Assembly: GCA_010093815.1 (NCBI GenBank)
Contig: ML996581.1
Strand: one strand, 5' to 3'
DNA: 64,000 bases
Origin: Pseudovirgaria hyperparasitica
Lineage: Eukaryota
The translations under genes were made by a program, and so were the position numbers. Below the pieces are notes generated by a model. That model was not told the DNA's origin and did not search any database. It saw nothing but the letters and a program-made list of their open reading frames with translations. Position 1 is the first letter of the stretch, and every line of letters begins with the position of its first letter. This document shows, piece by piece, positions 30,347-31,945 of this stretch.

Positions 30347-31945
30347 TCAATCTATTTCGTTACCTTGAAATCTTGGAAGCAGCGCGACGTTCCAACCACG
30401 AAAGACCTGACTCTTCACTGGGAGAATGTTTTTGCTTTCTTCTAGCGCGCCTTGCAGCTCCACATATAATCTCGATGGGATTCTGACTTCTTCGACCGAC
30501 GTACTCTCGACGTCCTCTCCAGTCTGAGTGACAAAATCCTGCCAGAATACCTTCATCGCGCGGGTGGGATCCAGGCGTTCAGAATTTGGGGGTTGATATG
30601 AAGATGAGAATGTTAAGTCTGGCGTGAAGATCCAAAGGAGCAAGCCAGACATTGAAGTATTGGCTGTGTCGTGTACAGCTATTTTGCGAACGCCTTGGTT
30701 TTCAATCGTGAAGAGAAAGAGTGCCGAGATCCATTTCACTATGGCATGATTGCCTGGCGGGAGATTGGTGTCGAATGGCATGTAGGAGAGGGCCCATTTC
30801 CAGACACGATATCCATCCGCTCGCTCGTCTACCATGCCGACTTCGGCTGCGCATTGCTTACAATGTAATGTGTTGTCGGGCTTAGTCTGGTCCGCTCAGC
30901 ATGGGTGACAACATACTGTCCGTTGATCATAACAGGCTATCAGACTTGAAACAATGAAGGACGTTTGATGTATTGATATGGATGATACATGGCACTGAGT
31001 GTGTCTTGACTAAAATCCATCTGAGCCCAAGACTGGGGACTTGATGAGTGCAATCGCGCAAGACGAGGCATGCTGCTGAACGAAGTAACCCATCACACCT
31101 GCGCGGAGGGTAGACCGCGTAAAGCAGTTGGTGCGTTCGCTTTAGGACGTTTGTATCGATGACCGAACCATGGAGGAAACGAGAGGCCAACTTCTTGACG
31201 CCCACAGTTGCATGATGTAGTGAAAGTAGTGATGAGAATACGAGAGTTGTAGAAGACTGTGAAAGCTTACCTTGATAGAACGACAGTCGTCACTGGCGAG
31301 TAGGAAGTATGCGATATCTACGAAACCCATACCTCCAATGGCTTGGATTTTGCTACCTGCCGCATATCCCTTGGTGTGAACAGCTTCGTCGTGAATTCCG
31401 TCCTCAGTGTCAGGCTTGTGACAATGCCAGAAGTCCATCATCTCTGCCCAGTTTTCGTTTGGTAAGTCTTTCCAGAGAGTGATAGTATCCTCAGGCGGTG
31501 CTATACTCTTCACGCTCCCGGAAGATGGCGAGTTGTTCAGGACAGCGGTTCCACAGTTCCGACAGCTGAACTTGCCTCGTCTCCTCACAAGACTCGGAGC
31601 TGACCACGGCACCCAATTGTCTTCCTGGAGTGCACCATTCTTGGCGGGAGAGTCTTTGATAAGATGACTCCTATGGTTGTGCTCTTCAAGCATCAGGCGT
31701 AGCTGTAAATCTTTCGTCGCCTGTTTTGGAAGCTCGAGAACGGCATTTGCACCGCCTTCGATTGCTTTCGGGAGATGAATGGTGGCAGAAACCTCTTCAT
31801 GACTGAGCGTGAGGGTTGTAGCATCAGCTGAGATCTTCGCCTTGGTTAGCGGAGTACTTTCTGTCGACAAGGAAGCGGTGAGAGTAAGTGTGCGAATGTT
31901 GAGCAGATGCTCCGCATACAGCTGGACGATAGGTTCAGAGGTCAT
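30347..31945 (-). CDS. IPA1: HECT-like E2C-binding protein (UBE3D / yeast Ipa1 family), 2 exons with a 384-nt intron
   Basis: LYAEHLLNIR, CRNC, WKDLPNENWAEMMDFWHCHKP, spliced IK|TKPDNTLHCKQC, LLLWIFTPD; intron 30887-31270 (gtaagc...gctgag...cag). Confidence 0.88.
30997..31205 (-). ncRNA. Candidate intronic box H/ACA guide snoRNA (snR81-like; U2 snRNA Psi42 pocket)
   Basis: Hairpin 1: lower stem GGGCGU/ACGUCC, pocket AAGAA / GAUAC, upper stem UGGCC/GGUCA, ANA-type box (AAAGCGA) 14 nt after the pocket; last hairpin GUCUUG/CAAGAC followed directly by ACA-CUC; about 208 nt, inside an unusually long intron. Confidence 0.75.

Follow-up and report, generated by a model that had tools for sequence, protein, structure and literature searches.

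The sole intron of a HECT_2/UBE3D/Ipa1-like gene in the fungus Pseudovirgaria hyperparasitica appears to encode an H/ACA guide RNA of about 205 nucleotides (nt), a member of a family held in the same intron across the Pezizomycotina, whose first pocket would serve the uridine equivalent to U42 of U2 small nuclear RNA (snRNA). The gene lies on the minus strand of the window, the whole 64,000-nt stretch of contig ML996581.1 (assembly GCA_010093815.1) that was analyzed, and coordinates below are positions in that window. Judged from sequence comparison, this reading is given a probability of roughly 0.7, and the RNA probably fills the place of a guide that is missing, in these fungi, for one conserved pseudouridine of U2. 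A stable RNA, its binding by the H/ACA proteins, a textbook U2 sequence and the modification itself are what we infer.

In the proposed mechanism, the spliced intron would be trimmed to release the RNA, and the trimmed product would be bound by Cbf5, Nhp2, Nop10 and Gar1. The internal loop of hairpin 1 would then pair with U2 on both flanks of the U42-equivalent uridine, leaving that uridine and the next G unpaired at 14 nt from the hinge, an arrangement in which Cbf5 would make the pseudouridine. The last hairpin would supply the ACA domain.

The host gene and the predicted RNA

The host gene consists of two exons separated by a single intron.

31271..31945 (-): exon 1 of the HECT_2/UBE3D/Ipa1-like host gene, 225 codons; Pfam PF09814, expect value (E) 3.4e-49, profile positions 1-194
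30887..31270 (-): sole intron of the host gene, 384 nt, GT..AG, placed by profile continuity and a contig joint
30347..30886 (-): exon 2 of the host gene, 179 codons plus stop; PF09814, E 6e-37, profile positions 202-369; from the list of open reading frames

A 384-nt sole intron had been claimed in a preliminary description of this DNA, and Pfam continuity across two exons, the length of a 404-amino-acid protein and a contig joint agree on it. Exon 1 is 100% identical to P0001, a database protein of 404 amino acids (NCBI: hypothetical protein, Pseudovirgaria hyperparasitica), a length that equals the sum of the 225 and 179 codons of the two exons. In contigs from two runs of one sample (X1 and X2), position 30886 is joined to 31271, with exactly 384 nt skipped and GT..AG on the minus strand; the concern that the interval might be a coding exon is settled by this joint, which skips all of it. 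A 442-nt contig (window 30859-31300) reads through the intron in both X1 and X2. Because the joint and the read-through contig are both present, 30887-31270 is an intron, and it occurs in spliced and unspliced form in the sample. Contig depth at the spliced joint and at the read-through was 23.8 versus 19.5 in X1 and 65.4 versus 54.3 in X2, values that give a rough measure of level, since X1 and X2 are contigs only, from runs whose kind is not on record. With depths this rough, the near-equal read-through hints at much unspliced or intron-derived RNA from the host gene.

The predicted RNA and its parts are laid out below in the order in which the minus strand is read. The ends of the RNA are assigned rather than measured, the RNA being taken to start where the base of hairpin 1 lies and to stop 3 nt past ACA.

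30997..31203 (-): predicted H/ACA RNA, about 205-207 nt, alignable throughout with 33 relatives
31198..31203 (-): hairpin 1 lower stem, 5' strand GGGCGU, paired with 31145-31150
31192..31197 (-): hairpin 1 pocket, 5' strand CAAGAA, in which AAGAA is complementary to U2 UUCUU
31158..31191 (-): hairpin 1 upper stem and loop, 5 pairs by RNAalifold
31151..31157 (-): hairpin 1 pocket, 3' strand GAUACAA, in which GAUAC is complementary to U2 GUAUC
31145..31150 (-): hairpin 1 lower stem, 3' strand ACGUCC, partner of GGGCGU
31137..31143 (-): hinge box AAAGCGA, a variant H box, starting 14 nt past the G of GAUAC
31069..31136 (-): middle hairpin, with the conserved top UACCCUC (31106-31112) opposite GAUGGGUU (31087-31094)
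31003..31064 (-): last hairpin, lower stem GUCUUG (31064-31059)/CAAGAC (31008-31003), upper stem UCAUC/GAUGG
31048-31058 and 31009-31016 (-): last-hairpin pocket, CGCGAUUGCAC and AUUUUAGU respectively, in the shape found when the hairpin is folded alone
31000..31002 (-): ACA box, 14-15 nt past the top of the last pocket, with 3 nt remaining to 30997

The hairpin-hinge-hairpin-tail plan of an H/ACA RNA is present, with internal loops in the first and last hairpins, a hinge box and ACA. The letters and positions given in the preliminary description for the hairpin, internal loop, hinge, last hairpin and ACA plus 3 nt were all reproduced, and the first and last hairpins, folded singly, adopt exactly the shapes proposed there. 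The target uridine of an H/ACA RNA sits 14-16 nt from the box (PMC2780460), and the spacing here is 14 nt to the hinge and 14-15 nt to ACA, the same as in the alignments of the relatives. The description of the hinge as a box 14 nt past the pocket that is "not a perfect ANANNA" was likewise accurate, the sixth letter being G.

A family held in one intron

A protein-alignment scan of metagenome contigs yielded 80 orthologous loci. Both exons were matched separately in 62 of these, interrupted at the same codon by a gap of about 240-550 nt (mostly 300-430 nt), and hairpin 1 was found after exon 1 in 75 of the 80. Four of the five loci without hairpin 1 (L034, L050, L065 and L071) lie on contigs that end before it. 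The other, L056, lies on a 1128-nt contig and carries a host-gene homolog that is distant (about 30% identity) and lacks both an intron at this position and the element. By nearest named protein, the loci include Alternaria-like (92-98% identity) and Friedmanniomyces-like fungi (74-91%), one that is Penicillium-like (74%), Verruconis-like fungi (about 56%) and others nearest to a Leotiomycete (43-52%), and with nearest proteins so widely spread the element spans several classes of the Pezizomycotina. In the proteins P0036, P0061 and P0088, an insertion of 100-150 residues sits exactly at the intron position and in each case starts with V (GTN); these insertions are the intron bearing the small nucleolar RNA (snoRNA) translated in frame, gene-calling artifacts that inflate the length of the protein.

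Conservation within the intron was expressed as the share of introns that carry the window base, using a MAFFT alignment of 55 distinct introns in which the other 54 were compared with that of the window. The share was 0.82 for CAAGAA, 0.93 for GAUACAA and 0.99 for ACA, compared with 0.30 and 0.16 for the intron flanks and 0.44 and 0.31 for the adjoining exon ends.

The structure of the family was analyzed in an alignment of 33 relatives that excluded the window. In these sequences 89.6% of the cells are paired (81.2% in shuffles), changes on both sides are seen at 17 of the 26 pairs, and the covariation is 0.406 compared with 0.254 in shuffles, none of 500 of which reached 0.406; when the partners were slid by 1-3 columns the value was at most 0.152. 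With plain MAFFT alignments as input, RNAalifold places both stems of hairpin 1, lower and upper, on either side of the pocket, and it also finds an ACCC/GGGU helix topping the middle hairpin and three helices in the last hairpin. The lower stem of hairpin 1 covaries, one pair being GC in 22 sequences and AU in 8, and another CG in 8, AU in 7 and UA in 4. Its upper stem is paired in 93.9% of cells and includes a pair that is CG in 15, AU in 5 and UA in 5. The last hairpin follows the same plan in the relatives, again with covarying stems.

The unpaired parts behave differently from the stems. Invariant in all 33 relatives are AGAA and GATAC of the pocket, ACA, and the A at hinge letters 1 and 7, along with two G-C pairs in the lower stem of hairpin 1. 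An A precedes AGAA in at least 90% of the relatives, and hinge letter 3 is A in at least 90%, giving the family pattern A-N-A-N-N-R-A, which the window's AAAGCGA fits. The hinge consensus is AGAUCAA (AGAUCA being a canonical H box), and several Alternaria-like members share the window's G at letter 6. Compensatory change in the stems is thereby combined with a kept sequence in the pocket, the pattern looked for in an H/ACA RNA.

In one lineage the upper stem of hairpin 1 has been wholly replaced, with AAGAA and GAUAC (or GAUAU) retained. The replacement, seen in L026, L030, L035, L038, L039, L043-L045, L057-L059, L066, L074 and L078, is longer and starts with CCGGCC. Retention of the pocket despite a rebuilt upper stem is the behavior expected of a guide sequence. 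The preliminary description had proposed an intron-encoded RNA of the H/ACA type and had suggested orthologous introns as the place to look for covariation and an invariant pocket. The proposal holds up well in that comparison: the RNA is kept in the orthologous intron, its stems covary, AGAA and GATAC never vary among the 33 relatives, nor does ACA, and 14 nt separate the pocket from its box.

The window copy was placed in this family with a covariance model (R1) of hairpin 1 and the H box whose training set was the 33 relatives, window excluded. Searched against both strands of the 64 kb, R1 gave a single match, at 31132-31205 on the minus strand (56.6 bits, E 1.1e-12). The same model matches 62 of the 80 loci at E <= 0.01, once each, with member scores of 53-80 bits and one outlier at 26.9; it misses the loci with the rebuilt upper stem, save for a weak match in L074. 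It is this comparison (R1, E 1.1e-12), and not folding energy, that takes the element beyond chance. Two further covariance models, R2 and R3, describe the last hairpin, and R3 finds 56 of the 80 loci at 26-80 bits, including some outside its training set.

The first pocket and U2

The target motif was an 18-nt stretch of the U2 branch-site region, UAGUAUC-UG-UUCUUUUCA, which was not taken from this organism. Pairing of the window pocket with this motif consists of GAUAC with GUAUC and AAGAA with UUCUU, 10 of 10 pairs being Watson-Crick, and leaves U-G unpaired. In the 55 distinct hairpins, the 3' strand of the pocket is GATAC in 45, GATAT (with wobble pairing) in 8 and TATAC in 2. Contiguous pairs with U2 were counted in the same 55 hairpins, 5' side plus 3' side, as follows.

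5+5: 27 of 55 hairpins, the window among these
6+5: 14 of 55
9+7: 9 of 55, in two lineages with differing upper stems; UGAAAAGAA with GAUACUA or GAUAUUG
8+5: 1 of 55
4+7: 1 of 55
4+5: 1 of 55, L012, where the script anchor was wrong and the count by eye is 6+5
7+0: 2 of 55, with UAUAC

From these counts it follows that, where the pocket differs between members, complementarity extends along U2 on both sides.

The specificity of the fit was examined by scanning 1193 uridines in 18S, 5.8S, the first 1127 nt of 25S, the large-subunit (LSU)-like contig L123 and the U2 motif. The ribosomal RNA (rRNA) came from fungal ribosomal DNA (rDNA) inside a bacterial assembly, and L123 has a sarcin-ricin loop and is unverified as rRNA. 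The U2 site ranked first among the 1193, with a mean score of 10.87 and all 34 members scoring at least 8; the runner-up had a mean of 6.71, with 2 of 34 members at 8 or above. The claim that the 5' pocket has guide geometry for the U42 equivalent of U2, made originally from the window alone, is supported by an invariant pocket, by pairing of up to 9+7 and by the best score among the uridines scanned.

Eukaryotic 18S rDNA occurs as contamination on at least 41 contigs (L081-L121) of public assemblies from bacteria and archaea; past the primer site its variants are yeast-like, mould-like or of other kinds. A motif search aimed at the middle part of 25S gave no match. Contig L122 was rejected as a source of 25S: about 100 nt at its start resemble LSU rRNA and are followed by unrelated GC-rich DNA with no Rfam match. 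It is filed as viral and is probably a chimeric assembly.

Weighing the alternatives

Several points count against a U2 guide encoded in the window. The U2 motif was put together from the preliminary description, from complements of guide motifs in PMC5473140 and, for its first two letters, from general background on U2, and U2 was not found in the fetched loci, in viral contigs or in five bacterial assemblies carrying fungal rDNA. A stretch of 25S some 400 nt long (roughly 1128-1520), the transfer RNAs (tRNAs) and the snRNAs other than U2 fell outside the scan, and the window's own pairing with U2 is the minimum, 5+5. As to structure, the sixth letter of AAAGCGA is G and so departs from the canonical H box ANANNA, the extra conserved hairpin between the hinge and the last hairpin departs from the classic two-hairpin plan, and the window's last hairpin scores below 3 bits with both R2 and R3, not above noise. 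Folding energy compared with shuffles gives no support either, with z = +1.0 for the whole RNA and -0.05, -2.0 and -0.7 for the first, middle and last hairpins taken singly; the middle hairpin folded alone has an energy of -23.3 kcal/mol at its z of -2.0.

Some of these points would suit a real H/ACA guide whose first pocket acts on some other RNA, such as an rRNA site outside the scan, another snRNA, a tRNA or a messenger RNA (mRNA), with the fit to U2 being coincidental or secondary. Pairing reaches no more than 5+5 in 27 of the 55 distinct hairpins, the two conserved A's past GAUAC are not both paired to U2, and the portion of 25S and the snRNAs beyond the scan leave room for such a target. 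A different target is nonetheless unlikely given that the next-best site, within 18S, 5.8S and the scanned part of 25S, scores 6.71 compared with 10.87 for U2, that variation in the pocket extends along U2 on both sides, to 9+7, and that yeast is known to have a pseudouridine at the U2 position concerned (PMC4931107).

The constancy of the host invites another explanation, in which the intron structure acts in cis, for example on the rate of splicing that sets the level of the Ipa1-like protein, with no guide acting in trans. The element indeed keeps to one intron of one gene throughout, and the depth of the read-through contig approaches that of the spliced joint in both runs. These depths are a poor measure of level, however, and these fungi have a true snoRNA with known fidelity to its host intron (PMC8216456). 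A role in cis would also leave unexplained the invariant ACA, the hinge at 14 nt and a single-stranded pocket that is better kept than the exons, and on balance we consider it quite improbable.

The remaining doubts about the window copy could be met by supposing that the family is real and that this member is decaying and forms no working ribonucleoprotein. In favor of decay are the G at hinge letter 6, the minimal 5+5 pairing with U2, the score of the last hairpin (below 3 bits with R2 and R3, compared with 26-80 bits in 56 of the 80 loci) and a G in the 5' strand of the last pocket where most relatives have U. Hairpin 1 of the window, on the other hand, scores 56.6 bits, inside the 53-80 range of the members, and its G at letter 6 is shared with several Alternaria-like ones. 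Although diverged in sequence, the last hairpin still follows the plan, with stems of 6 (lower) and 5 (upper) pairs, the pocket in between and the spacing of 14-15 nt to ACA. The host protein itself is only 47% identical to its nearest named relative, so that divergence of the RNA is to be expected, and decay appears very unlikely. Finally, chance hairpins in a long intron, to which the near-zero folding z values might have pointed, can be dismissed, because a model blind to the window finds it with E 1.1e-12 and hairpin 1 recurs in 75 of 80 loci.

The middle hairpin and the last pocket

The middle hairpin had been drawn in the preliminary description with the pairings GAACG/CGUUC and CGCGG/CCGCG, and these were not confirmed; the relatives favor ACCC/GGGU instead. 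Among the relatives, 93.9% of the cells of the ACCC/GGGU helix are paired, with no variation at several of its letters. The top of the hairpin is conserved in sequence and not just in pairing (alignment A3, columns 128-165), and it is too tight for a pocket. It may be a protein-binding or localization element.

In the family consensus, the last pocket reads GUUUCA along its 5' strand and G-A-U-(U/A)-A along its 3' strand, where the leading G is invariant. Most relatives have UUUCA at a place where the window reads UUGCA. No consistent site for it was found in 18S, 5.8S or the scanned part of 25S. Among the candidates tried, the equivalent of 25S 1051 (L113, fungal) gave 2+2 pairs with the window, and 5 of 34 members reached the threshold solely through implausible long-range stems. 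Yeast 18S position 1415, the site of which we take to read AAUC-UU-GUGAAAC, served as a lead and was rejected, with good pairing on one side only and none for the window. A candidate in 5.8S was also set aside, at 4+4 pairs. An AG, as CAG, GAG or UAG, is usual in the last hairpin's terminal loop and recalls the Cajal body (CAB) box; AG is present in about 70% or more of the members (alignment A5) and is not invariant.

Wider significance

Pseudouridines in the branch-site region of U2 aid assembly of the spliceosome, and in budding yeast the maker of each one is known. For filamentous fungi, the available portions of PMC2780460, PMC5824354 and PMC8216456 contain no H/ACA guide for an snRNA, and the Neurospora crassa survey among them predicted no pseudouridine guide for snRNAs (PMC2780460). 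The present family would fill this gap and would provide a testable pair of guide and target in model moulds and in crop-associated fungi. It would also be a clean example of a guide RNA fixed to one host intron while its upper stem is rebuilt. The RNA is of an ordinary kind, and the advance is accordingly an incremental one, with the middle hairpin and the orphan last pocket as small questions.

The last pocket can be taken a step further, tentatively. Given its consensus, a suitable target would read U(A/U)AUC-UN-UGAAAC, and in fission-yeast U2 the region of stem-loop IIa presumably has much the same sequence. [quoted passage not shown] This extension is doubtful. If it were true, the middle hairpin would be the element for protein binding or localization, and through a host intron kept over several hundred million years, the amount of a U2-modifying RNA would depend on how Ipa1/UBE3D is expressed and spliced. 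Ipa1/UBE3D being a regulator of the endonuclease that forms mRNA 3' ends, a large unspliced fraction would in that case reflect regulated processing. The coupling of the RNA to 3'-end processing through its host gene, which had been proposed from the start, is speculation; the host and the position of the intron are conserved.

Comparison with known guide RNAs

Rfam presumably includes a model for snR81, the yeast RNA to which the window element had been likened. Neither the window nor any of 9 orthologous loci gave an Rfam match at the gathering score. A search of the kind proposed in the preliminary description matched no H/ACA family in the intron even at E <= 10, where the intron gave a chance C/D match on the wrong strand and L003 gave nothing relevant. 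In yeast, the 5' pocket of snR81 guides modification of U2 position 42 and its 3' pocket that of 25S position 1051 (PMC4931107). Like snR81, the RNA described here is of the H/ACA type, is about 200 nt long and has a pocket in its 5' hairpin that is complementary to U2 near position 42. Unlike snR81, it is intronic, it has a third (middle) hairpin, and its 3' pocket does not fit 25S 1051. A survey of fungal snoRNAs traces the snR81 family within Saccharomyces only (PMC5824354). The label "snR81-like" can thus be kept for function, on account of the U2 pocket, and should be dropped for kinship, given the missing Rfam match at E <= 10 and the misfit of the 3' pocket to 25S 1051. Comparison at this level points to a new H/ACA family that would act like the 5' hairpin of snR81, and orthology to snR81 is not supported.

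Other guides that act on U2 offer parallels as well. In Schizosaccharomyces pombe, pugU2-43/44 is a fungal H/ACA guide for the U2 branch-site region with motifs that overlap those found here; it differs in serving the next two uridines, in using its 3' hairpin and in being located downstream of RPC10 rather than in an intron (PMC5473140). The vertebrate scaRNAs for U2, such as SCARNA8 (PMC5473140), are likewise H/ACA guides on U2 rather than on rRNA. The CAB box (ugAG) of scaRNAs lies in a terminal loop, where the present family has, in its last hairpin, an AG that is not invariant.

The present RNA was not found described in literature on snR81 and U2, on fungal H/ACA RNAs and on the UBE3D intron, a search that did not cover the supplementary family tables of the surveys. 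The closest parallel in mode of inheritance is the Pezizomycotina family listed as "H/ACA snoRNA intronic" (#04), which also occupies one host intron across classes and was also found by covariation (PMC8216456). It is another RNA, hosted by a vacuolar sorting protein gene, with a predicted target at 18S 743/744 and an average length of 177 nt. In Neurospora crassa, Nc ACA9 is an orphan H/ACA RNA of 201 nt that is located in an intron and has been cloned and detected by Northern blot (PMC2780460, Table 2). It resembles the present RNA in size and in its intronic location, as far as its description goes, and could belong to the same family.

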